Positions 1,201 through 26,346 of a DNA stretch of 26,346 bases are shown in pieces. Below the pieces are notes generated by a model, which saw only the letters and a list, made by a program, of their open reading frames with translations, had not been told where the DNA came from and made no database searches. Origin of the DNA: an uncultured Deinococcales bacterium (GTDB lineage: Bacteria; Deinococcota; Deinococci; Deinococcales; JAAFIG01). Where the stretch lies: assembly GCA_964244895.1 (NCBI GenBank), contig CAXTKV010000050.1, forward strand, positions 1 through 26,346, given 5' to 3'. The translations under genes and the position numbers were made by a program. Each line of letters starts with the position of its first letter. Within the stretch, counting starts at the first letter, position 1.

Positions 1201-1214
1201 TCTGGAGCCTGTAA

Positions 1215-3236: not shown

Positions 3237-3244
3237 GCGATGGC

Positions 3245-3955: not shown

Positions 3956-3987
3956 GAGCGCGAGGTTCGAGACCGAACCTCGCGCTC
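3956..3987. repeat. Perfect 14-bp inverted repeat (hairpin or operator) in the brxA/coiA divergent intergenic region
   Basis: GAGCGCGAGGTTCG-AGAC-CGAACCTCGCGCTC. Confidence 0.8.
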
Positions 3988-4181
3988 GATTCGTTTTGAG
4001 AGGTGTGCGGCCTCTTCGTCGTACTCGAGCCATCGCGGTCTAGAGCACATCATGGGTTGAGTGATGCCGTCCTCAACGGGCAGGCTCGAGCTGGCGTCCC
4101 GTGCAAAGTGTTGGAAATCGCGCGGAACATCCAGGTATGGATGCCGGATTTGCACCGCCACCGTCGTTGTTCCCTGCTTCA

Positions 4182-4823
4182 ATGAATGGCGTGTTCACCG
4201 CCTTACGTCGCTCAAAGGAGAATCCGGAGGAAGCAGAACAGGTCGTGTCCCTCGGCAATCTGCATCGCACCGATGAGCAGCGCCGCAAGCTCCAAGACCC
4301 CACCCACCGCTTTGCCTGCCGATTGTGCGACGGTGACGTAACACCGCACCTCGGTTCGATCAGAGCCTGGCACTTCGCCCACGCGCCCGGTGCTCCGTGC
4401 GCGTGGGACGCCTGGAGCGAACCCGAGAGCGAAAAGCACCGCGCCTTGAAACGCGCCTGCTATCGGGCGATACACCAGCTTTATCCGCACGCGAAAGTTG
4501 AATTCGAGGTCATCGTGCGCGAGGCCGGGCGCATCGCCGACGTGATGGCGACCTTGCCGACCGGGGAGCGGATCGCCGTCGAGTGCCAGCTCGCCGAGAT
4601 CAGCTTGCAGGAACTCGAGACGCGCACACTCGCCTACGAGGCGGTGGAGGTGGAAGTCGTGTGGGTCTTCGAGAAATCGAAAGTTGAGCAGCACGCCGCG
4701 CCCTGGATGGGGTTCTACGAGTGGCTCTATGACCGGGGTAACTTCGTGATGCTGTTCGAGCCTCGCTACCAGAAGATCGAGCAGAACCTCGGGACCTTCG
4801 ATGCCACGCAATCCGACGCTTGA
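4182..4823 (+). CDS. CoiA-family Zn-finger / PD-(D/E)XK nuclease
   Basis: CRLC...HFAH...C zinc-binding N-terminus, ESEKH..LK, VEFE...AGRIADV.......IAVECQLA.IS...L..RT..Y nuclease core. Start taken as ATG 4182 (ORF extends to 4101). Confidence 0.8.
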   Translation: MNGVFTALRRSKENPEEAEQVVSLGNLHRTDEQRRKLQDPTHRFACRLCDGDVTPHLGSIRAWHFAHAPGAPCAWDAWSEPESEKHRALKRACYRAIHQLYPHAKVEFEVIVREAGRIADVMATLPTGERIAVECQLAEISLQELETRTLAYEAVEVEVVWVFEKSKVEQHAAPWMGFYEWLYDRGNFVMLFEPRYQKIEQNLGTFDATQSDA

Positions 4824-5976: not shown

Positions 5977-6126
5977 GCTACGCTATTAGAGCAATTGAAA
6001 AGCGAGTTCGCGAACCTAAAGTGAAAACTGGTCGCGCCGTAGGGACTGACCGATCAAAATCGAGCCATGCTCCGTGCCGACGTTAGAAACGACCCGCCAC
6101 TTTTCAACTCCTGTCTGGCGTGACCC

Positions 6127-8088: not shown

Positions 8089-8585
8089 TATGGCCTCACT
8101 CCCAGCATATTGAAGATCGTCACTTCGTCGCCGACGCGTCCGAACCAGCGACCGAGCGTCTTTGCCCTCGCCAGGGACTCGTGATCTGGGATTTCGGTCG
8201 CTGGTTCGCTGAGCTTCCAGCGGCGGGTCCGCACCGTCTGTGCACTTATGGCCCCGGCGTTTAGCGCGAGACGCCGAGTTGAGAGCAGCAGCACGACGGC
8301 CTCGCGCACATAGGGAAGGAGTTGCCGCGCCCGCACGGGCAGGTGCGTCCTGACCCTCGGGTTGTCACGAATCCACGAGTGAAGCTGGTCGTAGGACTTC
8401 GCCTTGACCGTCTCCCGGAGGTCCTCGAAGACGAAGATTGGAGCGGCCACGAAGAGCGCCGCGAAGGGCAACGGCCTACCGCACTCCTCTGTGTAGGCTT
8501 TACAGAAACGGTAGAGGGCCTCGCCGACGAACGCGGGGTTGAACATGTACTGGACCTCGACCGGTCGTTCGGCCCATGCCTTCAA
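8088..8585 (-). CDS. lmuC: Lamassu / ABC-three-component middle component LmuC
   Basis: TTG start overlaps the lmuA stop (TTGA). W.ERP.E...MFNPAF and C-terminal A..LGRWF.......IF.MLGVRP are typical of ABC-3C middle components. Confidence 0.8.
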   Translation of the reverse strand: MKAWAERPVEVQYMFNPAFVGEALYRFCKAYTEECGRPLPFAALFVAAPIFVFEDLRETVKAKSYDQLHSWIRDNPRVRTHLPVRARQLLPYVREAVVLLLSTRRLALNAGAISAQTVRTRRWKLSEPATEIPDHESLARAKTLGRWFGRVGDEVTIFNMLGVRP

Positions 8586-9784
8586 GACACCACCGCCGCC
8601 GCCTTGACCATCAGGTCGGCCAGACGCTCCCTGAACTCCGGGTGCCAACCGATCTTGAACGAGTTCGCGAGGATGTGCAGGCTGCCCCGGGCGAACATCC
8701 CGTTCAAGTAGTCCCTGCGGACGGTTCTGAAGTTGCTGCGCTCGGACCAGTCGAAGAGCCTCAACCCGAGCTTTCGCAGCGTGTCGTCGTCGGGCAGGTC
8801 GCCCTTCTCGTCGATCATCCTCTCGAACTCGAGCGCCCACTCTTCCGTGAGGTAGTCCTCATACCGCTCCAGCTCGTCATCGGTGATCAGACCCCGATCC
8901 AGCCACTTCGAGCGCTGGTGGTAGGCACGGTAGTACGTGCCGATCGCTCGGCGGAGGCGCGAGTTGCTGCTGAGGACGAGCTTCAGCTGGGCGACGAAGT
9001 ATCGCTGGTGTTCGGGAAGCTCGGATTCGTCCATCTCTAACGGCTTTGGGAAGTCGTCGGGAAGGTTGTGTTCCGAATACTGGTTGTTTAGGTCGTGGAG
9101 TTTGCTCAGAAGCTCGGCTGGCCTGACCGTCGCAGACGGGTTCTGGAGGAGCGCGTCCGTCTTGCGCGACCACCACCCCTCCAGAGCGTTGTAGAGGTCG
9201 TCCAGGAACTGAGGCCGTACCGAGAAGATCAGAAAGTGCTGCTTGATCTCCTCGACGACGTCGGATATGGAGGGTCGAGCGTCGAGCACGTTGACCCGCG
9301 ACAGCAGCTCGAGCCGCTCGGTCTCAGACAGCTTCAGGTAGCTGGCGTAGGCCGACTGAAGAGCGGCATTCTTGTTGTGCGTGGCTATATTGTGCAGCCG
9401 CCGATCCGCTTCCTTCACGTCGCGGGAACCCGTCGGGCGGAGCGTCGCAGCGACACCAGGTTCCGGTGCGGTTGAGGTCGTGATCAACGTGAGCATTGCC
9501 CGCGCGACCCGCTGCGGGTCACTTACAGTGAGTTCGCACCACACCCGGAGCGTCTTCCAGAGTTCAACGCTCGAGTCGGTCAGGTTCGCCGGGGTGATGT
9601 GCATCTTCGTCTGAAACAGCTCTTCCGCAACATCGCCGTCCTCGAAGGCTATATCATCCAAGCGCTCGAGCGACATTTCGGACGTCCGACCCTCACTGCT
9701 TGCCTTGAAAAGTAACAGGAGCGCCCAGCGAAATTGGTATTTGTACCCTAACGCGGACGGACCCGCCGAGAACGGGCTGGTCAT
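8582..9784 (-). CDS. lmuA: Lamassu effector LmuA: Cap4-like (DUF4297-type) nuclease plus ABC-3C C-terminal domain
   Basis: N-terminal SA.PSALGY.YQ...AL, E.LDDI.F.......LFQTK.H nuclease motif, S.ELWKTL..W. C-terminal FV.QL......AI..YYRA..QRS.W and RGSLHILAN..KIGWHP. Confidence 0.82.
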   Translation of the reverse strand: MTSPFSAGPSALGYKYQFRWALLLLFKASSEGRTSEMSLERLDDIAFEDGDVAEELFQTKMHITPANLTDSSVELWKTLRVWCELTVSDPQRVARAMLTLITTSTAPEPGVAATLRPTGSRDVKEADRRLHNIATHNKNAALQSAYASYLKLSETERLELLSRVNVLDARPSISDVVEEIKQHFLIFSVRPQFLDDLYNALEGWWSRKTDALLQNPSATVRPAELLSKLHDLNNQYSEHNLPDDFPKPLEMDESELPEHQRYFVAQLKLVLSSNSRLRRAIGTYYRAYHQRSKWLDRGLITDDELERYEDYLTEEWALEFERMIDEKGDLPDDDTLRKLGLRLFDWSERSNFRTVRRDYLNGMFARGSLHILANSFKIGWHPEFRERLADLMVKAAAVVS

Positions 9785-10008
9785 CGAGAACCCTTGTCCG
9801 CAAACATGCAAAGAACGGCGTGCAAGTTCACTGCATGTTCATCACGGTTTTGTTCCACGCTTGAATTCTATATTGAAATTCGGACCTGTTTAGGAACACC
9901 GCCCCAAACGGCGTTTCTAAGTTTGGACACGATTTCTTAGATTCTCGCGCTCAGCGCCAGTTCAAGGCAGGCGCACAGGATCGACGTACCGGGACGGGGA
10001 CGACGCTT

Positions 10009-10586: not shown

Positions 10587-11110
10587 CGCTCCCTCCCGAG
10601 GTGATGACCGCCTCGCGCATCACCGCCCAGGGCTTCGAGGCCCTGCTCGAGCGCGCCCTGCTCCACCCTGACTCGCGCGCCGCGCACCTCCTCTCGATCG
10701 TCGGGCCGCGCGAGGCCGTGCGCGCCCTCTGGGCCAAGGGCATCAGCGGCCACGAGGTGTTGATCTCGAGTGCTGGCCGCTTTCGCCGCCCCACTTTCTA
10801 CAACATGACGATGCGCCAGCAGAAGCTGCCCAGCGGCGCGACGCACCTGCTGGTGGCCTCGAAGGCCGTGCTCGCCGGGCGGGTGATCGTGGCCCGCACG
10901 GGCGCGGAACTCGAGGATCGCGTCTGGGCCTCGATCCAGCGCGGCTGCCGCACACCCCTGCACGCCAGTTGGCGGGACTTCGCGCTCGAGCGCGTTGCTC
11001 GAGTCGAACTCGAATCCTTCGGCCCTGTACTGGGCTGCGCCCTCGAGGGCTTAGACCGCTTCGGTGGCCTGGTGCGCGAGGCCGTCAAGGCGGGTGTGCT
11101 GTGCGCTTAG
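10583..11110 (+). CDS. hypothetical protein resembling the conserved ICE/plasmid ORF that precedes DUF6094 methyltransferases
   Basis: Coupled to both neighbours. LSIVGPREAVRAL and TPLHASW motifs recall that family (recognised by eye). Confidence 0.65.
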   Translation: MTLPPEVMTASRITAQGFEALLERALLHPDSRAAHLLSIVGPREAVRALWAKGISGHEVLISSAGRFRRPTFYNMTMRQQKLPSGATHLLVASKAVLAGRVIVARTGAELEDRVWASIQRGCRTPLHASWRDFALERVARVELESFGPVLGCALEGLDRFGGLVREAVKAGVLCA

Positions 11111-12033
11111 CCTCGACGGCTAAGGCCGGGTTCTACCCCACGCCGCCCTCGATCGTCAGCTTTCTGATCTCGCGGCTCGAGCCTTGCGCGGGCGTGACGG
11201 CGCTCGACCCGTGCTGCGGCACGGGCGATGCCCTGGCCCGGATCTGCGGGGTGATCCAGGCGAGGGGCTACGGGATCGAACTCGAGGCGGAGCGCGCCCG
11301 CGAGGCCCGAACGAAGCTCGGTGAGGTTCGCACCGGCGACGCCTTGCGCCACGAGGCGCGCGGGTTTTCCTTGCTCTACCTCAACCCGCCCTACGACACC
11401 GACGCGGGCGAGCGCCTCGAGCGGCGCTTCCTGGCGCAGTACGCGAGCAGCCTGCTCGAGCGCGGCTTGCTGGTCTTGATCGTGCCCGAGTCCGTCCTCC
11501 CGGCCTGCCGCGACCTGCTCGAGCACCACTTCTTCAATCTCGGCGTCTGGCGATTCCCACCGGAGGACTACGCCGCTTACCGCCAGGTGATCGTCACCGG
11601 TTTCAAACGCTCCGATCGCCATGCTCCAGGAATCCTGCCCGAAGTCTCGGTGCTCGAGGCGATGCCGCGCCTGGCCCTCAGGGCGGGCCACGACCCGCTC
11701 GTGCGCCGCCACCGGGTGACGGAGGCCGAGCAGCTCAGTGAGGCGGCCTCGAGTCCCCTGTGGGACGACCTGTGGCAGAAGACCGCCCCCGTTTTGAGCG
11801 CCTTCCGCCCGTTGCACGCCGTGCGCGAGGGCCACCTGGCGCTCCTGGTCGCGGCGGGGATGCTCAACGGCGTGGTGGTCGAGGGCGGCGGGCGCAGGCT
11901 CCTCGTGCGCGGCCTGACCGAGAAGACCACGACCATCGAGGAGGGTGAGGACCGCACCGTCGAGCGCGAGCAGTTCGTCGGCGCGGTGGTCGCGCTCGAC
12001 CTCGACAGCGGGGAGGAGGTGAACGTCAGATGA
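11101..12033 (+). CDS. Orphan class I SAM-dependent DNA N6-adenine methyltransferase (DUF6094-type)
   Basis: GTG start RLAS.AKAGFYPTP, motif I DPCCGTG, YGIELE..RA, catalytic LYLNPPY. No cognate restriction nuclease alongside. Confidence 0.85.
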   Translation: MRLASTAKAGFYPTPPSIVSFLISRLEPCAGVTALDPCCGTGDALARICGVIQARGYGIELEAERAREARTKLGEVRTGDALRHEARGFSLLYLNPPYDTDAGERLERRFLAQYASSLLERGLLVLIVPESVLPACRDLLEHHFFNLGVWRFPPEDYAAYRQVIVTGFKRSDRHAPGILPEVSVLEAMPRLALRAGHDPLVRRHRVTEAEQLSEAASSPLWDDLWQKTAPVLSAFRPLHAVREGHLALLVAAGMLNGVVVEGGGRRLLVRGLTEKTTTIEEGEDRTVEREQFVGAVVALDLDSGEEVNVR

Positions 12034-14186
12034 CCGTCCCCGTCAGCACCGAGGCCGATCTGCGCCTGGCCGTAAACCCAACCGACGAGGCTCCTGGCTC
12101 GAGCCTCACGATGCGCGCCTTCCTCGAGCAGTTCGGCGCGAGCCTGATGCGCGAGGCCGGGGCGCTCTACCCGCCTGTGGTCGAGGATGGCCAGCTCGCG
12201 CTGCCCGAGAGCCTCAAGCGCCCGCCCAAGGGCGACCAGGCCAAAGCCATCAAGGCCGCGCTGTCCGGGTTCGCGCGCGGCTTGCGGCAGGTCTTCGTGG
12301 TCGCGGAGATGGGCACGGGCAAAACCATGCTGGCCATCACCATCGCCCACCTCGCTGGGTACTCGAGGGTGCTGGTGATGTGCCCGCCGCACATCGTGCA
12401 GAAGTGGGCGCGCGAGATCCGCATGACCGTCCCGACCGAGGTCCACGTGCTCGAGTCGATCCGCGACGTCGAGGCCGCGCGCCACCGCACAGGCTTCTTC
12501 CTCGTCTCGCGCGAGAAGGCCAAACTCGGGGGACGATGGAAACCCGCCGTGACCCAGAAGCGCCGGTTCAAGGATCAGTTCTCCTGCTGCCCGGATTGCG
12601 GTCAGCCCGTGATGCTCGACGGCGTGCCGATCAAACCCGAGGCGCTCGAGCGCAAGAAGCACGCCTGCCCCTGCGGCGCGCGGCTCTGGACGGTTGATCG
12701 CGGCGGGCCGAGGCGGGTGGCGCTGGCCGAGTACATCAGCCGTCGGTTGCCGCGCGGATTCTTCGATTTACTCGTGCTCGACGAGGTGCACGAGCTGAAA
12801 AGCGGTAGTTCCGCACAGGGCATCAACGCCGGACGGCTCGGCGAACACGCCCGGCGCACGCTCGTCCTGACCGGCACGCTCTTCGGTGGCTACGCCAGCA
12901 CGCTCTTTCACCTGCTGTGGCGCTTCAACGACGCGATCCGCACCAGGTACAAGATCGACGACGCCAAGCGCTTCATCGAGGACTTTGGCTTGGTCGAGCG
13001 CATCACCACCCACGGGATCGAGGAGGACGGTCGCACCAGTGCCCGCCGCAACGCGCGCGTGACCTCCAAGGAGCGCCCCGGCGTCAACCCGAAGGTGCTG
13101 ACGGATCTCCTGGGTTGCACGGTTTTCTTGCGGCTCTCCGACATCGGCGATGACCTGCCGCCTTACGAGGAATCCGTGCTCGAGGTCGAGATGGAGCCCG
13201 AGCAGCACGAGGTCCACACGCGCTTCCGCGAGCGGTTAATGGCCGAGGTGCGCCAGGCCCTGGCCAACGGCGACAAGCGCTTGCTCGGCAAGGCGATGAT
13301 GCCGCTCTTGCACCACCCCGACACGCCCTACCGGGCCGAGCGCGTGACGCTCGAGGAACCGACGGCCCCGGACGGCGTGCGCGTGGTCGCCCAAGCCCGC
13401 GCGCTCGAGGCGAGCCGCCTCTACCCCAAGGAGAAATTGCTCTGCGAGTTCGTCAGCGAGCGGGCCGTCGAGGGCCGCAAGACGCTCGTCTACGTGCAGG
13501 GCACCGAGAGGCGCGACGTGACCGCGCGCTTGAAGGGACTGCTCGAACTCTACGGCGTGCGGGCGATGATCCTCAAATCGGATACGGTCGATACCAAGCG
13601 CCGCGAGGAATTCGTGCTCGAGACGCAGGACGGCATCGACGCGCTGATCTGCCACCCGAGGCTGGTGCAGACGGGCTTGGATCTCCTGGCATTCCCGTCG
13701 ATCGTCTTCTACCAGGTCGAGTACAGCACCTACACCCTGCGCCAGGCCTCGCGGCGCTCGTTTCGGATCGGGCAGGATCGGGACGTGGAGGTCGTGCATA
13801 TGGCCTACCGCGACACGGCCCAACTCCCGGCCTTGAAGCTGATCGCGGCCAAAGCGCAGAAGTCCCTGGCGCTCGAGGGCGAGTTGGTCGAGACGGGCTT
13901 GACCAACCTGGCGGACGAGGACGTGCTGTTGGCGCTGGCGAGATCGCTCGTGACGGGTGGAGAGCCGGAGGGTGAATTGAAGGCAACGCGCGTGCAGCGG
14001 CGCGAGGAAGATGCGCCAGAGGCGGCCACGGTGCTGCTCGAACGCGGATCGGTGGCCAGTGCAGGTCGGCTCACGGCGCCAGCCCAATCGGATGGCGAGG
14101 TCGTCTCGGGTCAGGCGGTACTCTTCGCGCTGACGGACTTGCTCGAGCCGGGAACGGTCCCTCGCCCCGTCAAGAAGAGCGCTTGA
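12030..14186 (+). CDS. SF2 SNF2-like DEAD/DEAH helicase with Zn-finger insertion
   Basis: AEMGTGKT, LDEVH, LTGT, TGLDL, QASRRSFRIGQ; CPDCG...CPCG insertion. ATGA overlap with the methyltransferase. Confidence 0.9.
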   Translation: MTVPVSTEADLRLAVNPTDEAPGSSLTMRAFLEQFGASLMREAGALYPPVVEDGQLALPESLKRPPKGDQAKAIKAALSGFARGLRQVFVVAEMGTGKTMLAITIAHLAGYSRVLVMCPPHIVQKWAREIRMTVPTEVHVLESIRDVEAARHRTGFFLVSREKAKLGGRWKPAVTQKRRFKDQFSCCPDCGQPVMLDGVPIKPEALERKKHACPCGARLWTVDRGGPRRVALAEYISRRLPRGFFDLLVLDEVHELKSGSSAQGINAGRLGEHARRTLVLTGTLFGGYASTLFHLLWRFNDAIRTRYKIDDAKRFIEDFGLVERITTHGIEEDGRTSARRNARVTSKERPGVNPKVLTDLLGCTVFLRLSDIGDDLPPYEESVLEVEMEPEQHEVHTRFRERLMAEVRQALANGDKRLLGKAMMPLLHHPDTPYRAERVTLEEPTAPDGVRVVAQARALEASRLYPKEKLLCEFVSERAVEGRKTLVYVQGTERRDVTARLKGLLELYGVRAMILKSDTVDTKRREEFVLETQDGIDALICHPRLVQTGLDLLAFPSIVFYQVEYSTYTLRQASRRSFRIGQDRDVEVVHMAYRDTAQLPALKLIAAKAQKSLALEGELVETGLTNLADEDVLLALARSLVTGGEPEGELKATRVQRREEDAPEAATVLLERGSVASAGRLTAPAQSDGEVVSGQAVLFALTDLLEPGTVPRPVKKSA

Positions 14187-14323
14187 CTGGGCTTCGGGCC
14201 GCTCCCGAAGCGCGTGCGCCGAAAGGAGATGACCCATGAGGCAAACAGCAGCGAACGAATCCGGCGCGGGCTGGTGAGACTCAAGATGAGCGAGGACTGG
14301 TTTCTTGACACGGAGGTGCTCGA

Positions 14324-14710
14324 GTGGAAGAGGGCTTCATACTGGTGTTCCTCGAGGACGGCGCAATCGAACGGCGCTGGTTCGAGGGCGCGACGCCGAG
14401 CCTGGTGCTCTTGCAGGCGGCGGTCGGCGGGTATATCGAACTCGTCGCGCCGAAGTTTCACGCGGTGGCTGACGGCGAGGTCTGGATCAACGAGGAGGGC
14501 CTCGGCGCGCTCCCTCCGAACCCATCGGGATCGAGCGCAGTCGGGCTGGACCTCTCGGTCTTCGAGCCGTTCTGCGGGCCGATCGTCGTCTCGCCGTTTC
14601 CGGGCGGCGAGCGGGCGATGACACGATTGCGGGACTCGGCCTTTCATCGGGCGCTCGAAGCGACCTTGCGCGACGTGCCCGCCTTTGGAGGTGCGCCGTG
14701 GCGCGGGTGA
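14324..14710 (+). CDS. DUF3846-like protein
   Basis: LQAAVGGYIE...WINEEG...LPPN...GPIVV motif; GGAGGT RBS. Confidence 0.75.
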   Translation: MEEGFILVFLEDGAIERRWFEGATPSLVLLQAAVGGYIELVAPKFHAVADGEVWINEEGLGALPPNPSGSSAVGLDLSVFEPFCGPIVVSPFPGGERAMTRLRDSAFHRALEATLRDVPAFGGAPWRG

Positions 14711-15021
14711 GCTTCAACGGACCCGAGGAATTCCTCGAAGAACTCGAGCGCGATCGGTCGCTGGTCGAGCGCGATCTCGTGCGCGTGACGGGCCTCTACC
14801 GGCGCGGCGGGCCGCTGCCGATGACGCGCGTGGCCCTGGTGGCGACGGCCAAGGTGGCGGGCGACGTGCTGCGGCTCGAACTCGAGGTGGGTTCCTTCAT
14901 CGCGCGCGAGGACGCCGAGGCGCACGGCGTGATGAAGCGCCTCGGTGAGCGCCGCGCCTGGCTGGAGGCGGAACTCGCGCGGCTCAAGCTCGAGGTGCGC
15001 ACGGGAATGCTCGAGCCTTGA
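14698..15021 (+). CDS. hypothetical protein (107 aa)
   Basis: GGAGGT RBS, GTG start, codon usage matches neighbours. Confidence 0.7.
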   Translation: MARVSFNGPEEFLEELERDRSLVERDLVRVTGLYRRGGPLPMTRVALVATAKVAGDVLRLELEVGSFIAREDAEAHGVMKRLGERRAWLEAELARLKLEVRTGMLEP

Positions 15022-15058
15022 CCCGTTCGGCCTCGCTGATTCCCAAGGAGGTGGTTCC

Positions 15059-15763
15059 GTGTTCGAATCGCTCTCGAAACTGATTCCCCACGAGGGGGAC
15101 ACGCTGCTGTTGACGCTCGCCCGAGACGGCGAGGGCTGGCGCGTCAACCTCGTCCCCCACCCCACCGACGCGACGCTCGCTGAAGCCCGATCACCCCTGA
15201 CGCTGGTGGCCAGCCTCGAGGATCTCGAGACGGGCTTCGAGGCCGCCCTCGAGCGCTTTTGCGCCGCGACCGCCCCCTTGCTCGAGCAGGTCGAGCAGGC
15301 TATCCAGGCCAGCAAGCAGGCCGCCGAGGAGGCGAGGGCCAAGGTCGCGCCGAAGTCCGCCAAGCCACCCGCGAAATCGGCCCCCCAGCCCAAGCCCGAG
15401 GTCCAGGCGGAACCAGCGGCCCAGGGCGATCTCTTCAGCGCGAGCGCGGCGGCGTCCGAGGCTGTTCCCAGTCCAGCCCCGGCGACGGAACCCGCACTGG
15501 TCACCGCCCCACCCGTGCCGTTCACGCCCGACCCGCAAGCGCAACTCAAGCGCCGCCTCGGCCAGCTCGGCCTCGAGCGCCAGTCGCTGAGCGAGCGTTT
15601 GAACGGCGCGGCGGCCTCGTTCGAGCTCGAGGGCGCGTTCGTCGAAGGTGTGCTGCACCCGTCCCTCGACGGCACCCCCCTCGGGCGCAAGTACCTCGAG
15701 GTCGTCGGCAAGATTCAGATGCTCGAGCGCCGTGGCACCGAGGCGCTCTCGGAGGTGGTGTGA
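15059..15763 (+). CDS. PRTRC system protein E
   Basis: AAGGAGG RBS. MFESL..L......LLL.......RVNLVP......PLTL.AS.EDL..GF...L, followed by an Ala/Pro/Lys-rich linker containing DLF. Confidence 0.85.
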   Translation: MFESLSKLIPHEGDTLLLTLARDGEGWRVNLVPHPTDATLAEARSPLTLVASLEDLETGFEAALERFCAATAPLLEQVEQAIQASKQAAEEARAKVAPKSAKPPAKSAPQPKPEVQAEPAAQGDLFSASAAASEAVPSPAPATEPALVTAPPVPFTPDPQAQLKRRLGQLGLERQSLSERLNGAAASFELEGAFVEGVLHPSLDGTPLGRKYLEVVGKIQMLERRGTEALSEVV

Positions 15764-15993
15764 TGGCCAGCGAAACGAAGTCAGGCACAGTCCAGGTCGA
15801 AGTCATCCGGCGCGAGTTCCGCTACGAGGGCCGGGTCCTGGCCGACCCGAACCCGAGGCTCGAACCGGACGGTGTGCGCGGCTTCTACGCGCAGCAGTTC
15901 CCGGAGCTGGTGAACGCGGTGCTCGAGGGTCCCGTGCTCGAGCGCGGGCGGCGCGTCTACCGCTTCGCGCGTCGCGTCGGGAAGAACGGGTGA
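15763..15993 (+). CDS. PRTRC system protein C (prokaryotic ubiquitin-like)
   Basis: 76 aa. REFRY.G..L.DPNP.L....VR.FYA.QFPEL.NA.LEGP......VY.F...VGKNG with C-terminal Gly. TGATG coupling. Confidence 0.9.
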   Translation: MASETKSGTVQVEVIRREFRYEGRVLADPNPRLEPDGVRGFYAQQFPELVNAVLEGPVLERGRRVYRFARRVGKNG

Positions 15994-15996
15994 GCC

Positions 15997-16218
15997 GTGG
16001 CCAGGTGCGCTCGAGCGGGTGCAAAGAATCAAGACAGCCTCAGGGCGACGCTCGAGCGCCTGATTCGCCTCGAGCCGGGCGAGCGCCCCGAGGCGCTGAC
16101 CGCCTTCCTCGAGGACGAGGACGCCCAACGCGCCAGCGAGATCGCCGCCCGGTTGACCAACGCCGCCCGCAACCGGACCCTCGTGCCCCCGCCGGAGCTG
16201 CCGGGCGTGCTGGACTGA
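15997..16218 (+). CDS. small hypothetical protein within the PRTRC operon
   Basis: 73-aa ORF fills the gap between C and F exactly; high-GC3 codons. Confidence 0.55.
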   Translation: MARCARAGAKNQDSLRATLERLIRLEPGERPEALTAFLEDEDAQRASEIAARLTNAARNRTLVPPPELPGVLD

Positions 16219-17147
16219 ACGCCTTTTCGTTGCCGCGACTCGGCGAGGCGGCGAATCCGATCGACCTCGGCGATCCCCGCCCGATGGCGAGACTGGCGCT
16301 CGATCTGCTCGAGGGCGGTGGCTTCGACGAGGCGCTCTGGTCGCCCGATCTTGAGATCGCCGACTGGCTCGGGCGCGCGTGGGAGGTGATCGTCGAGCGC
16401 GAGTTCGGCGGTCTACGGCTCGAGGCCAGTCTGACGCTCGAAATCGAGGGCGGGTCCGCCTGGGTCGGGCTGCGCGCCGAAGCGTGTACCTTCTGGGACG
16501 CGAGCGAGGTCTACGCCGCGCTCGAGGTGCTCTCGCCCGGCGCGGGTCAGGGCGTGCTCGCCCTGGTCGAATCGCTCGGCGGGCCGATGCCGGTGCTGAC
16601 CCCGAACCGCGCCCTCGAGTTCTGCCGGATGACGGGCACGACGCCCGAGGGGATGCTGCCCGAGGCCTACGCGTCGCTCGAGCCGATTCCGCGCGGTGCG
16701 CTCGAGGCCCTCGCGCGCGGTGAGCGGCCCGTACCGGGGGCGCTCTTTCCTGAGATCGGCGTGCCCGGTTTGGCGCGGCTGAGGGCGATCCTCGAGGCGG
16801 TGCGGGCCGTCGAGATCGCACTCGAGGCCTTGGGTGAGGAACAGGCCGGGCCAGCGTACAGCGACGCCTCGTGGCTGCCCGGCTACGGCCTCGGGCTGGT
16901 TGGGCCGCGCGGCGACCTCTGCTGGCACGCGGCGATGGAACTCGAGCAGTACGCGCGCGAGGAGGCGGGGATCGAGCTCGGCTGGCGGGTCGAAATCGAG
17001 GCGGACGAACCCGAGGGCTTCGCCGCGCTCGTGCGCTTCCTGGACTGCGCCCCAATGGTGCTCCGGGCGCTCGAGCGGCTGCTCGACGTGCTCGGGACGG
17101 AAAAGACTCGAGACGACGGCGAGAACCCGTTCGGGGAGGGGGATTGA
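16215..17147 (+). CDS. PRTRC system protein F-like
   Basis: Position between C and B. N-terminal FSLPRL, LE.L.PG.G..VL and VLTP patterns. Start is CTG 16215 or ATG 16284. Confidence 0.65.
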   Translation: MNAFSLPRLGEAANPIDLGDPRPMARLALDLLEGGGFDEALWSPDLEIADWLGRAWEVIVEREFGGLRLEASLTLEIEGGSAWVGLRAEACTFWDASEVYAALEVLSPGAGQGVLALVESLGGPMPVLTPNRALEFCRMTGTTPEGMLPEAYASLEPIPRGALEALARGERPVPGALFPEIGVPGLARLRAILEAVRAVEIALEALGEEQAGPAYSDASWLPGYGLGLVGPRGDLCWHAAMELEQYAREEAGIELGWRVEIEADEPEGFAALVRFLDCAPMVLRALERLLDVLGTEKTRDDGENPFGEGD

Positions 17148-17148
17148 G

Positions 17149-17826
17149 ATGACGGTCGAACCCTATGCGGAAATCGAGGGCAGCGGGCGCACCGGGCCAT
17201 CGCGGGCGATCCTCCTCTACGGGGGTCGCTTCGCCAGCGTTCACGCCATCGAGCGCGGCGAACTCGCGCCGGGCCGGGCGCTCTCGAGCGAGGCCCTGCG
17301 CGAGGCGCTCGAGGCCCTGTGCGGCGCGAGCCTCGAGTGGTTGCCCGCGAACGTGCTCGCCTTCGGCGCGGGGCGGCTCGTCTGGTGCGAGCCGCCCCAG
17401 ACTCGAGCGCTCTTCTTCGAGACGGGCGATGCCGCGCTCGATTCGCTCTCGGGTCGCGCCTTCCCCGTGCCGGGGTTGGTCTTCGCGGCCTCCGCGAGAT
17501 CGCTCTGCGTCTGGGCCTACCGGGGCGAGCACCGTCCAGAGTCGAACGAAGACCTCTTCGTCGCGCCGTTCTTCAACGTCGCTCGAGGCAGCGTCTGCCT
17601 CGGCTCGATGCGGGTGCCGGAGGTCTTCGATGCCGGATGCGGCGAGGCCTGGTCGGCCTCGTTCTTCGCGGCGGCCTTCACCCACCAGACGCAACCCGGG
17701 GCGCTCACCAGCTTCGGCGGCAGCCAGGCCGAACTCTGGCTCGAGAGCGGGCGTCGGGGGGCTTTCGATCCCGCCTGGCTCGTGCCCGCGAACACCGTTC
17801 TCGAGGCGGCGATCCGCCGTGAATGA
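17149..17826 (+). CDS. PRTRC system protein B (prokaryotic E2 family D)
   Basis: AILLY, ASVH.I, LP.NVL, LVW..P...R.LFF, P.PGLVF, LF.APFFNV..GSVCLGS, W...FF...FTH; GGGGAGG RBS. Confidence 0.88.
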   Translation: MTVEPYAEIEGSGRTGPSRAILLYGGRFASVHAIERGELAPGRALSSEALREALEALCGASLEWLPANVLAFGAGRLVWCEPPQTRALFFETGDAALDSLSGRAFPVPGLVFAASARSLCVWAYRGEHRPESNEDLFVAPFFNVARGSVCLGSMRVPEVFDAGCGEAWSASFFAAAFTHQTQPGALTSFGGSQAELWLESGRRGAFDPAWLVPANTVLEAAIRRE

Positions 17827-18598
17827 GCACCATCTGGCCGACGACCTGCGAGGCAAGCTCGAGAACCCCTGGGGTGCAGGCTGGCGGGTGGTGCTGGTCG
17901 GGGCGGGCGGCAACGGCAGCAAGGCGCTGGTCGGCTTGAAGAACCTCTCGTTGGCGCTCGAGGCGATCGGCTGGCGCGGACTCGAGGTCACGGTCTACGA
18001 CCCGGATACCGTCTCGGAGGCGAACCTGGTGCGTCAGGCCTTCTACGCCTGCGACGTGGGCCGCAACAAGGCGGTGACGCTGGTCAACCGGCTGAACCTC
18101 TCGTGCGGGCTCGACTGGAAGGCGTTGCCGGTCGCGTTCGGACCGGTGCGCTCGAGCCCGTGCGAGTTGCTGGTGAGTTGCGTCGATTCCGGCGAGGACC
18201 GCTTGGAGGTTTCGAAGGCCGCGCACATGGCGCGCTACTGGCTCGACCTGGCCAACGGTGAGACGTACGGGCAGGCGGTGCTCGGCCAACCCAAGCCTCC
18301 GGGCGCGACCTCGAGGCGGGGCCGTCTGCCGACGGTGGCGGAGCTCTTCCCCTCGATCCTCGAGCCGGACGAGGCGCGCGGTCCGTCGTGCAGCGCGAGG
18401 GAAGCATTGTCCCGGCAGGATTTGTTCGTCGGGGATGCGGTCGTGACGCTCGGGTTGAACCTCGTCTGGCGCTTGCTCAGACATGGCCAGATCGAGATCC
18501 ACGGCGGGTTCGTGAACCTCGAGACGGGCTGCGCCACGCCATTGGCGGTCGGTGCGAAACACCAACCACCGCGTTCTCGATCCGGTGCTCGAGGTTAG
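17819..18598 (+). CDS. PRTRC system ThiF-family (E1-like) protein
   Basis: VVLVGAGGNGS, YDPDTVSEANLVRQ.F...DVG.NKA..LV.R.N, SCVD, YWLD.AN....GQ.VLG, PSCSA.EAL.RQ.LF. Confidence 0.92.
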   Translation: MNEHHLADDLRGKLENPWGAGWRVVLVGAGGNGSKALVGLKNLSLALEAIGWRGLEVTVYDPDTVSEANLVRQAFYACDVGRNKAVTLVNRLNLSCGLDWKALPVAFGPVRSSPCELLVSCVDSGEDRLEVSKAAHMARYWLDLANGETYGQAVLGQPKPPGATSRRGRLPTVAELFPSILEPDEARGPSCSAREALSRQDLFVGDAVVTLGLNLVWRLLRHGQIEIHGGFVNLETGCATPLAVGAKHQPPRSRSGARG

Positions 18599-18630
18599 AC
18601 TGCGCCGTGGAAACTGCCTCGGATGACACA

Positions 18631-18661
18631 ACTTGACTAAGTGAACTTAGTCAAGTAGCAT
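18631..18661 (+). promoter_or_regulatory. Toxin-antitoxin promoter with overlapping palindromic operator
   Basis: ACTTGACTAAGT-GA-ACTTAGTCAAGT (12-bp arms, 18631-18656). TTGACT (18633) and TAGCAT (18656) are 17 bp apart. Confidence 0.85.
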
Positions 18662-18677
18662 CCAGGCGAGGAACACC

Positions 18678-18962
18678 ATGCGCCAAGTCAACGTCCACGA
18701 AGCCAAAACCCACCTCTCGCGCCTGCTCGAGCAGGTCGAGGCGGGCGAAGAGATCATCCTCGCGCGCGGCGGCACGCCGATCGCCCGGCTGACGCGCTAC
18801 ACCCCGGATGCGCCCGCCGGGCGCACGCCCGGTCGACTCAAGGGCCAGATCGTTGTTCACCCCGGCTTCCTTGAGGCTGACGTGGCCCTCGAGAAAGCCT
18901 TCGGCGATGGCGAGCTGTTCCCGAGGGCCAAGCCGCCGCACCGCGCCCGGAAGCCCCGGTGA
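18678..18962 (+). CDS. Type II antitoxin, Phd/YefM family
   Basis: VNVHEAKTHLSRLLEQVEAGEEIILARGGTPIARL; GAGG RBS. Confidence 0.93.
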   Translation: MRQVNVHEAKTHLSRLLEQVEAGEEIILARGGTPIARLTRYTPDAPAGRTPGRLKGQIVVHPGFLEADVALEKAFGDGELFPRAKPPHRARKPR

Positions 18963-19342
18963 CGGACCTGCTGCTGGACACGCACATCCTCCTGTGGTGG
19001 CAGGCCGACGACCCCGCGCTCTCCAAGAAAGCCAGGCGGTTGATCGCCGACGCGGATCGCCGGGTGGTGGTCTCGGCGCTCTCCTTGTGGGAGATCGCGA
19101 TCAAATCGGGTCGGGGCAAGCTCACCGCCGACGCGCGGCTCGTGCGCGACGCGATCCTCGACGACGGCTTCGAACTCCTCGGCTTCAGCGCCAGCCACGC
19201 GCTCGAGGTCGCGGCGCTCCCGGCGATCCACAACGACCCCTTCGACCGAGGATTGATCGCCACGGCCCGCGCGGACGGTCTCTCACTCGTCACGAGCGAC
19301 GAACTCTTGAAGGGGTACGGCGCGGGCGTGATGATGGTTTGA
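18959..19342 (+). CDS. vapC: Type II toxin, VapC/PIN family
   Basis: LLLDTHILLW, VSALSLWEIAIK...GKL, H.DPFDR.LIATA....L.LVTSD; GTGA overlap with the antitoxin. Confidence 0.93.
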   Translation: MTDLLLDTHILLWWQADDPALSKKARRLIADADRRVVVSALSLWEIAIKSGRGKLTADARLVRDAILDDGFELLGFSASHALEVAALPAIHNDPFDRGLIATARADGLSLVTSDELLKGYGAGVMMV

Positions 19343-21630: not shown

Positions 21631-21784
21631 GCGGATTCGTGGCTGGGGCGGCGTGCGCTGCCCCAGCCGTGTTGTCTTAGTCAATCGAGTGCGGCTGGCT
21701 CGCCGTGCGACCGGACGCGGGTGGACGGGTGATGGACGAGGCGATGGCGTTGGTTTCGGTCGCGCTCGGTTGGCGCGAGTCGTC

Positions 21785-21824
21785 CCAGACTTTGGAACTT
21801 ACAGCCAGACTTTGGAACTTACAG
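21785..21824 (+). repeat. Perfect 20-bp tandem duplication
   Basis: CCAGACTTTGGAACTTACAG x2, then a partial CAGACTT. Confidence 0.9.
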
Positions 21825-21901: not shown

Positions 21902-22513
21902 TCATGGACTTTCTGCAATACGTTGTTCTAAATCAGCCTTGGCTTTATATGCGTTTTGGCGAGCATCCTCGATCTGCTGATCGAGTTCCTTTAAACGTTC
22001 GTGCGCGACGACATCGCTATTGCCGATGAGGTTTGAGCGCTCAATCCAGGCAGCATGAAGCCCACGTAGCATCTCCAGTTCTTCGACCCGAATTAAAGCC
22101 ATACTTACGGCATCTTCTAACTTGCTCAACACATCGCTAGGCTCAGGTAGATCTACGGCTTGGTGGTTGGGATCGAGCAATGCCAACTCGGTTTGAAGGT
22201 TAACGATCCGGCTCCGAGTTCGCTCTAGTTCTTCTTCCGACCACCGATGCCAATGCTCACCAAGGGATGGTTCTCTCAGTTCACGCTGCAACTGGTGTGC
22301 AAACTGAAGTGCCCTTGAAAGGCGGGACCTCACAGTTTCGACAGTTACAGGTTTTTGGGTGGCGGTGGCAGCACGTTCTGCTTCGGCGAGGCTGACCTCG
22401 CTGTCCTTACGAACCGCCTCATAGAATGAGAGTTCGGCTGGAGTGGCCACTTGCTCTAGTTTAGCCAGTGCCTTGAGTTGGCGGCGGTAATATTCAATCG
22501 CAGAAATTGACAC
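21902..22513 (-). CDS. hypothetical coiled-coil protein (~203 aa)
   Basis: AAGGAG RBS before GTG 22513; helical, charged sequence; last gene of the minus-strand operon. Confidence 0.7.
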   Translation of the reverse strand: MSISAIEYYRRQLKALAKLEQVATPAELSFYEAVRKDSEVSLAEAERAATATQKPVTVETVRSRLSRALQFAHQLQRELREPSLGEHWHRWSEEELERTRSRIVNLQTELALLDPNHQAVDLPEPSDVLSKLEDAVSMALIRVEELEMLRGLHAAWIERSNLIGNSDVVAHERLKELDQQIEDARQNAYKAKADLEQRIAESP

Positions 22514-22534
22514 GCTTCGCTCCTTCATTGATCT

Positions 22535-24253
22535 TTACTTGGACAGCAGTTGTCGAAAGGCTGTCGTGTCAATCTCACCTGCCAAAAGCGCTTCGAGATT
22601 CTTCTGGAGATGTTCACGCTCGACACGCAAGTGTCCACCCAGAGTTCGTGGAACGAGGCCGTGCGTCCGCGCAACTTCGAGGGCTAAACGGTGCCAAGTT
22701 GGACCGTTCATCTCAGCCACTCGAACCAAGTGATACGCAATTAGGGCAGGAGGGACAACAGGTTGCAAGTGCCACTGATCACCACGCTGAACAAGCAATG
22801 CGTCGCGCATCCGCTTGCGCTCGACGTGTTGGTCGCGCGAGAGTTGTGCGTTGAGTCCGAAAGCCTCCAGTGTTGTCTGCACGAACGGCAGTCTCGATGG
22901 AATGCCTCGACCATGAACGCAGATTGATCGTCCATCTTTGAACACACTTGGAATCGCGGCGTCTGCGACCTCTGAAATTGAGAATGGCGAGAGTGCCAGA
23001 AATGCTGCCGCGATGGGATGCCGAAGCGTCAGCCGTCGAGCCAATCCCTCACGTGTTTTTGAATTCGGTGCTTTGGTAAAGAGTTCTCGTATTTCCGCAC
23101 AAAGCTGCGATACAGGAGCAATGTCTTCGCCAGCAAAGTGAAGTGCGATCTCGAGTTTAAGCCCGGCAAGTAACATCGCTACGTCTGGCATTCTCGATGA
23201 GCTGTGACGCACGCGCTGAGCTGCCAGAAGCGGCTGTCCAAGGCGCAGTAAAGCAAGTCCTTGAAACCACTCAATTTTTGGCAATACTGTTGCGCTGGTT
23301 GGTCGCCAGTGGCGAAACATCTCAAGGATCGCTCTAAGGGCGTCTGCATCGGGATGCCCTGCATTGGTTGCCAGGAGTTGATAGGCGCGGACTTGCACGT
23401 CATAGTTCCCTGAAGGGCAAACTTTCACAGCCTCAGTTGCACTCAGGACTCCGGTTGTGGCGCGAATGTACTGCAAGCTAGAGGCTGCAATTGGATCTTC
23501 GGGTTTTTCTGTGACCGCCGCATTTATTAACTCGCTCGCAAGTTCATCGTCACCGAGACGGAGCCAGATGAGGGCACTGTTGATAGTTGCACACCGCTGC
23601 TGTATCGATTTTGGCTTCGCATTGATCGCCACGAAGTCGTATTGCTCAAGCGCGTCTAACAGGTTCTCAGATCGCAGTGAGGCGAGACCAAAAAGTAAGC
23701 GAACCGCTAAATGAAGCACTGGTGCTTTTAGCCACTTGCTTGGAAGCACGGCCTCACTGGCGAGATCGAGGGCGCGATTGTACGATTGGTGTTCAACGTG
23801 TATTTCAGCCTGTGTTAAAAGGAGCTGGACCTCGGCTTCGACCGAAAATGGAGTTTTCAGAGGTGACTGTCGGATTTCGTCAAGCGCTCGCTCGAGCGCC
23901 CGTAGCGATGCCGTACTACGCGGAGCATTCGCAGTGGGCTTTGAACCTTCAAGTGCGGCCTCATGACGTGCCAATTGAGCGAGTGCGTGTCCACGTATCG
24001 CGGGGTCGTCAGACAGCAGTCCCATTCCGGCGAATTCGAGCCAGCGCTCATTGTCTCCAGCTAGGCAGTAAAGGTGGGCTGCCCGAATGGCAGCGATGAA
24101 ACCGCCAACTTTGGCGACGCGTGTTGCGAGTTCATGATTCTGATAACCTGACGAACGCTCAGATGCGACCCACCTATAGAATGCTTCTGGGTCGATGAGA
24201 TTCGGGATGTTGTGCGGTGCAAGCCGATCTTCCTGATCGCGGAACGATTTCAT
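22535..24253 (-). CDS. TPR-like all-helical protein (572 aa), putative peptide receptor/regulator
   Basis: Repeated TPR-like segments: AEIHVEHQSYNRALDLA, GLASLRSENLLDALEQY, ALIWLRLGDDELASELI, GLALLRLGQPLLAAQRV. ATGA overlap with the thioredoxin stop. Confidence 0.65.
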   Translation of the reverse strand: MKSFRDQEDRLAPHNIPNLIDPEAFYRWVASERSSGYQNHELATRVAKVGGFIAAIRAAHLYCLAGDNERWLEFAGMGLLSDDPAIRGHALAQLARHEAALEGSKPTANAPRSTASLRALERALDEIRQSPLKTPFSVEAEVQLLLTQAEIHVEHQSYNRALDLASEAVLPSKWLKAPVLHLAVRLLFGLASLRSENLLDALEQYDFVAINAKPKSIQQRCATINSALIWLRLGDDELASELINAAVTEKPEDPIAASSLQYIRATTGVLSATEAVKVCPSGNYDVQVRAYQLLATNAGHPDADALRAILEMFRHWRPTSATVLPKIEWFQGLALLRLGQPLLAAQRVRHSSSRMPDVAMLLAGLKLEIALHFAGEDIAPVSQLCAEIRELFTKAPNSKTREGLARRLTLRHPIAAAFLALSPFSISEVADAAIPSVFKDGRSICVHGRGIPSRLPFVQTTLEAFGLNAQLSRDQHVERKRMRDALLVQRGDQWHLQPVVPPALIAYHLVRVAEMNGPTWHRLALEVARTHGLVPRTLGGHLRVEREHLQKNLEALLAGEIDTTAFRQLLSK

Positions 24254-24585
24254 GACTTGACTGTATTTTCAATCAATCGGTCTAAGTGCTCGCGATAGGT
24301 TTTCTTCGGATACGACGAATACAACACATCGCTCGGTTGTCCGTCAACGAAGTAAATTACAGTGGGCACACCAAGGACGCGATTTCGAAGTGCAAGCGTC
24401 ATTTCCTTGACAGTATTCACACGACCGAAAGTTGCGATGCCCGCATACTCGTCCGCCAATTCAGCGATTGCGGGCGTGACGATCTTACATGGTGAGCAAT
24501 CAGGAGACCAGAATTCGACAACGGCGATGCCGCTTGCGAGTACCGCGTCGAAATTATCGTCGGTCAGATTGATGGCGTTCAGCAT
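24250..24585 (-). CDS. Thioredoxin family protein
   Basis: 111 aa. LTDDNF..V, VVEFWSPDCSPCK...P, cis-Pro loop GVPT.IYF.DG; GAGGAG RBS. Confidence 0.9.
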   Translation of the reverse strand: MLNAINLTDDNFDAVLASGIAVVEFWSPDCSPCKIVTPAIAELADEYAGIATFGRVNTVKEMTLALRNRVLGVPTVIYFVDGQPSDVLYSSYPKKTYREHLDRLIENTVKS

Positions 24586-24598
24586 TGGCTCCTCACAA

Positions 24599-24757
24599 TC
24601 AATTCTTGATTGACGCTCCATCGCCACAGAAGGGTCGGCAGAGTTGTCCAGGCATATCAAGCTGCGGTGGATGTTGGTTCGGATTTGCTGCGAAAATTGG
24701 AGGAAGTCCGACAAGCAGAACCATGAGTGCCGCAAGCATCAGTTTCGACTTTTTCAC
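24599..24757 (-). CDS. Small secreted peptide precursor (52 aa) with CRPFC motif
   Basis: AGGAGG RBS, GTG start. MKKSK n-region, LMLAALMVLLVGL h-region, PPIFA/A cleavage region; mature part about ANPNQHPPQLDMPGQLCRPFCGDGASIKN. Confidence 0.78.
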   Translation of the reverse strand: MKKSKLMLAALMVLLVGLPPIFAANPNQHPPQLDMPGQLCRPFCGDGASIKN

Positions 24758-24787
24758 TTTGAGCCTCCTGGCAATCACCTTAGCAAA

Positions 24788-24827
24788 GGTTCGGCAATTG
24801 TTGGCGCAATGTTCGGGTTTTGTTCGG
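24788..24827 (-). promoter_or_regulatory. Four heptamer direct repeats at 11-bp period upstream of the peptide gene
   Basis: + strand GGTTCGG (24788), TGTTGGC (24799), TGTTCGG (24810), TGTTCGG (24821). Confidence 0.6.
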
Positions 24828-25149
24828 GCGGCACTTAGGGAATTGCCGTAGCCTCTACCCATTGAGGTCTGGAGGGCTAAGAGTCACCGAACTGTAAAAC
24901 ACAAGTATCTTCATAGTCCTGATTGGTGCCGTGCTAAACGCCGTTTCCAACTTAAGGGACTTCCCGTGAAACGCCACTTGCGCACTCCGACACGGTTTTC
25001 CCCACTTCCACGCACCGTTCGAGTTCGCTTGATCCAATCAATGCCCACTTAGCAACGGTTTGTCCTCGTTCGATTCCCGCTGTGAACCGGGCCGAACACG
25101 CCCTAGTTCTCGAGGGCAGCTGGCTGTCTATTCTCAAGTGGAGGTTGCA

Positions 25150-25629
25150 GTGAACACAACGCGATTTGCTCGGTACGCTCGAGGTTTCATCGCCGGGACG
25201 AAGAGCGTCAGCGATATGTTCGCGGATCTGTCCGAAGGCATCGAGGTGTGGGCCACCGAACTCGAGGAGGGCGGATTCTGGCACCAGTGGGACCAGGACG
25301 CGTACTGCAACCGCAAGCGGTTTGCCAATTCAGGGTGTACGCGTTTCCAGGATGGCGACGGCTTCAAACGCCAGGTCATCAACTTCTTGACCACGCATCC
25401 AGGCGCTTTGCGCCGACAGGTCACCGCGAGCACGGGCATCAGCCGTCAATACCTCAATGGCGTGCTGAAGGAATTGGCGGCGAAGCAGGTGTTGCGCGTG
25501 GAGCAAAACCTGCTTTATCTCGACGCGGAGGCGGTAAATCCGTGGCAACCCACACCGCCGCGACCCGTCGCACGACGGATCGTATACGAACCACCGCTGA
25601 CGCTCGAGCTTGAATTCTGTGCGGGGTGA
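25150..25629 (+). CDS. Winged helix-turn-helix domain protein
   Basis: GGAGG RBS before GTG 25150. VINFLTTHPGA.RRQV...TGISRQYLNGVLKEL.AKQVL wHTH pattern. Confidence 0.7.
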   Translation: MNTTRFARYARGFIAGTKSVSDMFADLSEGIEVWATELEEGGFWHQWDQDAYCNRKRFANSGCTRFQDGDGFKRQVINFLTTHPGALRRQVTASTGISRQYLNGVLKELAAKQVLRVEQNLLYLDAEAVNPWQPTPPRPVARRIVYEPPLTLELEFCAG

Positions 25630-25634
25630 CGCGT

Positions 25635-26346
25635 ATGGCCACCAGTACGGATTTTGCGGCGATTCGCTCGGAGATCAAAGCGCGGATTGACTTGCGCGAA
25701 ATCATCGCGGACGACCTCGGCGTGCCGCTTCGGGGTGATCCCATGACCGCGCTCTGCCCCTTTCACCGAGAACGAACCCCGTCCTTCAAGGTGTATCGGG
25801 ATCACTTCTACTGCTTCGGTTGCGAGGCGAGCGGCGACATCTTCACGTGGTTGCAGTCCGACGTGCATTGCTTTGACGCGAAGGGAGCGTTTCACGAGGC
25901 GTTGCGGTTGGCTGGCCTGTCGCTGCAACCCCAACAGCTCCAGCACACGACCCGCCCGAAGGTTCCCACGGCCCCACCCGTCACGGCCGCTCAACTCGAA
26001 GCCTGGATGGAACCCTTCGTCGAAGCCGGTTGGAGGGCTTTGAGCGCACCGCGCACCGCTGCCGCCAAGCGTGCGGCGGCGTACCTCGAGACTCGAGGAT
26101 TGTCCGCCGCCGTTCCAGCGTTGCATTTCGGCGTCGCCGAGTACGACATGATTGAAGCGGCCCTTGCGAACAGTGCGCCGCAACGGATCAAGGGCTGGTA
26201 CGGTCGCGTCATTCTGCCCTTTTACTGGTCGGCCAGACTCGCGTGGTTCAAGGTGCGCCACGTCGGCGGCGAGACCGCCGCCGAGCTGAAACCCAAACAC
26301 GTGCTGCGCTCCGACGGCCCCAACGTAGGACATCACGTGTTCCCCC
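25635..26346 (+). CDS. CHC2 zinc-finger DNA primase (DnaG-like, mobile-element type; 3' partial)
   Basis: Translated by hand; absent from the ORF track because it has no stop in the window: MATSTDFAAIRSEIKARIDLREII...ALCPFHRERTPSFKVYRDHFYCFGCEASGDIF...AAYLETRGL...GRVILPF. Confidence 0.88.
   Translation, partial: MATSTDFAAIRSEIKARIDLREIIADDLGVPLRGDPMTALCPFHRERTPSFKVYRDHFYCFGCEASGDIFTWLQSDVHCFDAKGAFHEALRLAGLSLQPQQLQHTTRPKVPTAPPVTAAQLEAWMEPFVEAGWRALSAPRTAAAKRAAAYLETRGLSAAVPALHFGVAEYDMIEAALANSAPQRIKGWYGRVILPFYWSARLAWFKVRHVGGETAAELKPKHVLRSDGPNVGHHVFP

Follow-up and report, generated by a model that had tools for sequence, protein, structure and literature searches.

A conserved peptide–thioredoxin–TPR receptor cassette of Deinococcales as a putative redox-handled signalling system

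Four packed minus-strand genes on a contig of an uncultured Deinococcales bacterium raise the question of whether a small secreted peptide, a thioredoxin and a receptor built of tetratricopeptide repeats (TPRs) can together form a signalling system. The genes lie within a 26,346-nucleotide stretch of DNA (assembly GCA_964244895.1, contig CAXTKV010000050.1, positions 1 to 26,346), referred to here as the window, and a preliminary description had read them as a redox-gated peptide-signalling operon. All four open reading frames (ORFs), encoding the peptide, the thioredoxin, the receptor and a helical fourth protein, were found where that description had placed them, closely spaced and with ribosome-binding sites (RBSs) or a coupled start. 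They are real and conserved and look like an undescribed variant of peptide–TPR signalling, of which no description was found in the open-access literature. Going beyond the observed linkage, cysteine conservation, fold and promoter motif, we consider it probable, at roughly 0.6, that the cassette is an autoinducing peptide-signalling system on a mobile element whose signal is handled by redox chemistry.

The conservation of the gene neighborhood was assessed in a survey of 64 receptor-family loci (40 plus 24 more). The clade of the window's receptor is termed type A, for which counts are based on 14 loci with visible upstream DNA, 15 receptors or 12 full-length tree rows. Type-A receptors formed a single clade with a support of 100/99 in the tree of full-length rows. 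A thioredoxin gene and an RBS-bearing signal-peptide ORF with a C-x3/4-C motif were present at 14 of 14 type-A loci, and both the cysteine pair and the thioredoxin stayed while the receptors diverged to 29–55% identity. Across the whole survey, thioredoxin genes occurred at 15 of the 64 loci; 14 of these genes stood beside a type-A receptor and a signal-peptide ORF with two or four cysteines, and the fifteenth belongs to a mixed locus (L085). The order peptide, thioredoxin, receptor was kept at 13 of the 14 type-A loci, the exception being L042, where the receptor is divergent from a peptide–helical gene–thioredoxin series and the peptide and receptor genes are adjacent. The helical protein gave 18 matches in 364 genomes of the phylum, of which the 16 strong ones (E ≤ 5.4e-11) were each next to a gene of the receptor family, of type A in 14 cases and type C in two; the other two were weak and partial. 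Distances among receptor, thioredoxin and helical protein covaried (Mantel r 0.68, 0.66 and 0.55 for 11 loci, which as kin are not independent). The four genes therefore form a conserved cassette of Deinococcales.

Used as a single query, the receptor found matches in 31 of the 364 genomes, and the receptor-family profile reached at least 47 of 364 at E ≤ 1e-15, a lower bound given that three candidates per genome were scored. The matches spanned three of six families, with Deinococcus species as the named relatives. A profile search yielded 148 representatives at E ≤ 1e-30; among the 150 profile matches listed, nine were long multi-repeat proteins that are probably generic. No cassette loci were found in the metagenome scans or the viral scan, and a search of PLSDB gave no match to type-A receptors.

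Sister clades of the receptor family exchange the accessory gene, with an M3 oligopeptidase at 23 loci, an S41 peptidase at 11 and an ABC transporter at five. Thirteen of the M3 loci (within L049–L064) combine a vicinal-cysteine peptide and a receptor with an unclassified membrane-protein pair and no thioredoxin. The pair is divergently encoded and comprises a membrane protein of 275 aa and a 146-aa protein that belongs to no known family; it may be a peptide-modifying enzyme, since it is missing where the peptide has no vicinal cysteines. Two tandem peptide genes per receptor were observed at L055–L057, and the precursor at L047 has a duplicated MPGGGDWEPEPEN unit. Other sister loci encode cysteine-free peptides, and a few complete loci (L070, L072, L074 and L075) contained no peptide by the charge/hydrophobicity rule applied here to signal peptides. 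The window's genome itself carries a second receptor-family cassette (G000:C221, L087) with a receptor, a two-cysteine secreted peptide and an S41 peptidase. Mixed arrangements were also seen at L083, L085 and L045, in which a type-C receptor–peptide–S41 series is followed by thioredoxin and/or the helical gene, or a type-A-like receptor is followed by the helical gene and an S41 peptidase.

The propeptide gene (24599–24757, minus strand, GTG start) is preceded by the RBS AGGAGG (24764–24769) and encodes 52 aa with exactly two cysteines. Residues 1 to about 23 probably form a Sec-type signal, and the mature part contains C40-R-P-F-C44. An 87-aa ATG-started peptide ORF was rejected because the RBS and homologues favored the shorter start. 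Both cysteines are invariant in a 12-row precursor alignment, which excludes the two of 14 type-A precursors that bear two tandem cysteine units. The charge/hydrophobicity rule was passed by 14 of 14 type-A precursors. Precursor lengths among homologues ranged from 40 to 82 aa (2/14 above 70 aa), and a tryptophan precedes the first cysteine by 1–4 residues in 13 of 14 type-A peptides, that of the window being the exception. Pfam and NCBIfam had no name for the peptide.

The adjoining gene (24250–24585, minus strand, 111 aa) encodes a cytoplasmic thioredoxin, as judged from its PF00085 score (60.7 bits against a cut-off of 23.5; E 1.5e-16), its CxxC motif and the lack of an export signal. A 161-aa TTG-started ORF was again rejected in favor of the shorter start on account of its RBS and homologues. 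The motif reads WSPDCSPC, so that the tryptophan of WCGPC is missing, and CxPC was conserved in 15 of 15 cassette thioredoxins. The window's thioredoxin scored under all TrxA/TrxC equivalog cut-offs, and the tree sets it apart from the host TrxA, which indicates a dedicated group. The thioredoxin of the rearranged locus L042 instead clusters with host TrxA (SH-aLRT 99), and its sequence therefore suggests that thioredoxin was recruited into the cassette twice.

The receptor gene (22535–24253, minus strand) overlaps the thioredoxin stop codon by ATGA and encodes 572 aa, comprising a TPR superhelix (about 12–436) and a C-terminal winged-helix/helical domain (424–572). The receptor-family profile matched the consensus TPR at E 1e-33, and 14 of 33 family members had a TPR_2 match at E ≤ 0.1; the window receptor's own sequence had no Pfam TPR match, and neither Pfam nor NCBIfam gave it a name. 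Its top fold matches were AimR, domain III of MalT, Rap and NprR, with AimR, Rap and NprR aligning over 310–340 residues; identity to the structural matches was 8–12%. Foldseek alone returned generic TPRs and no match for the C-terminal domain. The top fold matches of that domain were AfsR and EmbR, with 115–121 residues aligned compared with 50–81 for nearly all other matches listed, and the model resembles a reduced SARP module (ODB plus part of BTAD). The sequence searches added no further identification: hhalign to a neighboring BTAD protein was negative, a PDB sequence search with the C-terminal profile found no match, ESM Atlas gave leads below 0.9 only, and no HTH or BTAD relatives were among the matches listed for the N- and C-terminal profiles in the host genome, where meaningful N-terminal scores came from two family members alone. 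A putative recognition helix, R[DN][QM]xxE, was shared by 14 of 15 type-A receptors, L042 being the exception, and GxGx-Q takes its place in the sister clade type C. N225 is an invariant residue.

Three points on which the preliminary interpretation depended were thus checked, and all of them held: peptide ORFs do accompany receptor homologues at the surveyed type-A loci, the cysteine pair and thioredoxin are conserved with them, and the receptor does have a TPR superhelix, with known peptide receptors among its best structural matches. What that interpretation missed was the output arm, namely the SARP-like C-terminal domain and a promoter with 11-bp repeats.

These repeats before a –10 box were looked for because the SARP lead predicted them. 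Upstream of the window's peptide gene, four direct repeats with an 11-bp period (CGAACA, CGAACA, CCAACA and CGAACC; 24783–24826, minus strand), which are putative receptor binding sites, precede a putative –10 box, TAAGGT (24777–24782), that lies exactly 44 bp after the start of the first repeat. The type-A consensus is four CCAACA-N5 units at 11-bp spacing, and at 11 of 14 loci the distance from the first unit to TANNNT is exactly 44 bp; L041 is off by one, L058 is off by two and L042 has no box. As this consensus was read from the type-A loci themselves, held-out testing was applied. A matrix from ten other loci placed the window site at the top of the 5.1-Mb genome with 32.1 bits, the second-best site reaching 16.7. 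Of the 14 sites, 12 scored above all 10.2 million background windows when held out. The exact pattern occurred 14 times in 12 of 364 genomes, compared with two matches for the reversed control. A sigma-70 scan does not pick up the cassette promoter. Box sequence tracks receptor clade and recognition helix: L042, which has no box, has the sole type-A receptor with a differing putative helix, and type C has its own 11-bp repeat (AAGTGT..) at five of nine loci. Upstream of the type-B loci, no shared perfect 11-bp repeat was found. Given the SARP-like domain and the matching repeat promoter, the receptor is predicted to be a transcription activator of its own cassette, and we regard this as likely. 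At L038, a second array of three CCAACA repeats was observed within the 3′-terminal part of the helical gene, on the opposite strand and facing back into the cassette, possibly as an antisense promoter.

The helical fourth gene was called at 21902–22528 (minus strand, 208 aa). Because AAGGAG precedes GTG 22513 and the resulting length agrees with a 203-aa entry on record, GTG 22513 (203 aa) is the more likely true start. The protein belongs to no known family, with no significant match in Pfam, NCBIfam, PDB sequences, PADLOC or ESM Atlas. The coiled coil of its earlier label is suggested by sequence pattern and by weak matches of homologues to coiled-coil families. As a guess, it may be an effector or an anti-activator. 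Since this genome has only one box, the output would be either the helical protein or a target on unassembled DNA.

Taken together, these features suggest a mechanism. The observed gene order and motif imply that the peptide, thioredoxin, receptor and helical genes would be transcribed as one operon from the single 11-bp-repeat promoter. The propeptide would be exported by Sec and trimmed, and outside the cell a disulfide across its C-x3/4-C motif would form a small ring. Re-import could proceed through Opp-type transporters of the host, which has 22 Opp-family binding proteins, and the peptide would then bind the TPR groove, as suggested by the fold, the invariant N225 and the analogy with RRNPP systems. 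The SARP-like winged helix of the bound receptor would bind the CCAACA repeats and activate its own promoter in positive feedback. The co-induced thioredoxin may act on the peptide disulfide or on a mixed disulfide between the peptide and C279 of the receptor, and the helical protein may, again as a guess, be the output that is induced or feed back to inhibit the receptor. By analogy, we lean slightly towards thioredoxin resetting the system, by opening the ring and ending the signal, rather than activating it, because it fills the slot of the cytoplasmic M3 oligopeptidase in the sister cassettes. Two observations bear on the proposed redox gating. Searches of the host genome, which is 91% complete, detected no DsbB and no VKOR, which argues against easy oxidation of the peptide, although DsbA-like proteins were found there. 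Moreover, cysteine-pair peptides also accompany sister receptors without a thioredoxin; cysteine peptides do not always need one, and type A always has it.

A variant of the thioredoxin step, rather than a separate system, would make the reduced peptide or a peptide–metal complex the active ligand, with the ring as a travel form that thioredoxin opens, freeing its thiols to bond to C279 or to share a metal ion in the groove. The confinement of C279 to the thioredoxin-linked clade (12/15 type-A receptors against 0/36 others) and the translational coupling of the thioredoxin and receptor genes fit this variant. However, the three of 15 type-A receptors that have no C279 still keep the thioredoxin and the cysteine pair, and a reducing cytoplasm with host TrxA would be expected to open a small disulfide ring unaided; we regard the variant as unlikely.

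The promoter evidence bears on a different proposal, in which the receptor does not bind DNA and acts as a Rap-like switch, either retaining the helical protein or releasing it, while a host or plasmid factor such as Rep binds the repeats. The receptor has no sequence evidence of a DNA-binding domain, and the helical protein is strictly linked to it. In addition, eight of the 14 exact-pattern matches are peptide promoters and the other six lie upstream of a plasmid protein that shares 76% identity with pUE30's large ORF, which is called a replication initiation protein in the available part of its source (PMC11165121); two genomes with rep-associated boxes have no detected receptor. The repeats before rep could be iterons, a regulon target or a case of convergence. 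In the pUE30-type rep promoters (L122, L123, L125, L128–L130, L133, L135 and L144), three to five CCAACA repeats with an 11-bp period stood ahead of the inverted repeat GCACCCC..GGGGTGC, with a TANNNT box after it; in pUE30 itself the inverted repeat is preserved while the array is incomplete. Against the switch, the window's genome has the box yet yielded no pUE30-type Rep, the box follows receptor clade and recognition helix, and the C-terminal fold is nearest to SARPs; the proposal is quite improbable.

Still less probable is a bacteriocin-like reading, in which the peptide is a small disulfide-bonded product, the receptor regulates its production, and the thioredoxin and helical protein provide self-protection. 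A secreted cysteine-ring peptide on a mobile element, the tandem cysteine units of two precursors and a cytoplasmic reductase able to detoxify the peptide would suit such a product. Nevertheless, the mature regions, which are short and variable, have no cationic-amphipathic character and only W-x-C..C in common, no transporter or membrane immunity gene recurs across type-A loci, and a small core amid hypervariable sequence is what pheromones typically show. Finally, an envelope redox or stress sensor, in which the exported peptide samples the outside oxidizing state and reports to the same cell instead of signalling density, would account for the cysteine pair and thioredoxin and for the DCC1-like oxidoreductase near one mixed locus, yet it is the least probable reading, as the peptide sequences vary between loci and the receptor family is common to sister cassettes with cysteine-free peptides and peptidases, so that peptide signalling looks ancestral.

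The surroundings of the cassette bear on its mobility. The cassette is an island of 53% G+C between flanks of 69% and 62% in a genome of 63%, with a step at the left edge between 21700 and 21800. A perfect 20-bp tandem duplication at this edge (21785–21824) is possibly an insertion scar, and a strong hairpin of 15 pairs stands between convergent genes at 21638–21671. Positions 1–9811 carry BREX pglZ and brxL, a brxA-like ORF, a CoiA-like nuclease and an ABC-three-component (ABC-3C) defence system (CTD7, DUF3732), and positions 10969–19342 carry a DUF6094 methyltransferase, an SNF2-type helicase, a PRTRC-type cluster (E2-D, ThiF) and a PIN toxin–antitoxin pair. At 25060–26346 there are a divergent winged-helix ORF (MarR_2, E 9e-4) and a CHC2 zinc-finger primase, and no repeat box faces either. 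Judged by the BREX, ABC-3C, DUF6094 methyltransferase, helicase, PRTRC-type, PIN and primase zinc-finger genes, the contig appears to be a plasmid or an integrative element.

If the autoinducing, redox-handled loop is correct, cytoplasmic peptide–receptor signalling would reach Deinococcota, where it would have another output module and a signal handled by a redox enzyme instead of proteolysis. The cassette has a predicted ligand, receptor, operator and modifying enzyme, which makes every step testable in a laboratory Deinococcus strain, and the clade-specific triplets of peptide, helix and box could yield orthogonal inducible promoters for Deinococcus-group bacteria. Only tentatively would we go further and propose a lineage independent of RRNPP, in which a reduced SARP activator with a fused TPR sensor reads a thioredoxin-switched disulfide-ring signal as a redox-dependent quorum read-out, possibly through a covalent peptide–receptor bond at C279, and perhaps also controls pUE30-type plasmid replication.

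Among known systems, the RRNPP(A) group (AimR-AimP, Rap-Phr, NprR-NprX and PlcR-PapR) resembles the cassette in combining a small propeptide, probably of Sec type here, with a cytoplasmic TPR receptor encoded nearby on a mobile element, and the peptidases of the sister cassettes add to the likeness. The accessible part of one source (bioRxiv 10.1101/2021.08.18.456871) lists as criteria a propeptide of 10–70 aa, a Sec signal, a receptor of 250–500 aa, TPR repeats and adjacent genes. The 52-aa propeptide and the TPR repeats of the receptor family agree with this list; the receptor, at 572 aa in a family of about 550–620 aa, is longer, and the thioredoxin gene separates peptide and receptor at 13 of 14 type-A loci. 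As far as the accessible parts of the sources go, cytoplasmic peptide–receptor signalling is placed in Bacillota and their mobile elements (bioRxiv 10.1101/2021.08.18.456871, 10.1101/2023.09.19.558401), and any DNA-binding domain is described as an N-terminal HTH (bioRxiv 10.1101/2023.09.19.558401). Here, in contrast, the host belongs to Deinococcota, the putative DNA-binding domain is C-terminal, and the cassette adds a thioredoxin gene, an invariant cysteine pair in the peptide and an extra helical gene.

The receptor also differs from MalT, with its domain III and C-terminal DNA-binding domain, in its lack of a STAND ATPase; the ligand of MalT is maltotriose, and its HTH is of the LuxR type. 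The defence-system models of PADLOC 2.0 did not match the cassette's proteins (no matches for three window proteins, and one weak helical match, E 1e-3, for one homologue). The receptor's C-terminal domain aligns to the ODB and part of the BTAD of SARPs such as AfsR and EmbR. In the accessible part of PMC10936776, SARP targets are described as having direct repeats with a spacing of 11 or 22 bp, set at a constant distance from –10; the cassette promoter likewise has 11-bp repeats at a fixed distance from its –10 box, although the gap from the last hexamer to TANNNT is 5 bp rather than 8 bp, a value that depends on how the repeats are delimited. The same part of that source mentions no cognate peptide or thioredoxin for SARPs. 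In SARPs the domain is N-terminal, whereas the cassette's shorter module (424–572) is C-terminal, behind the TPR sensor, in a receptor with neither a NOD/ATPase domain nor sequence similarity. The cassette would work like an RRNPP system, while departing from two of the five listed criteria (receptor length and adjacency) and lying outside Bacillota, and its output geometry is SARP-like without being SARP by sequence or domain order.
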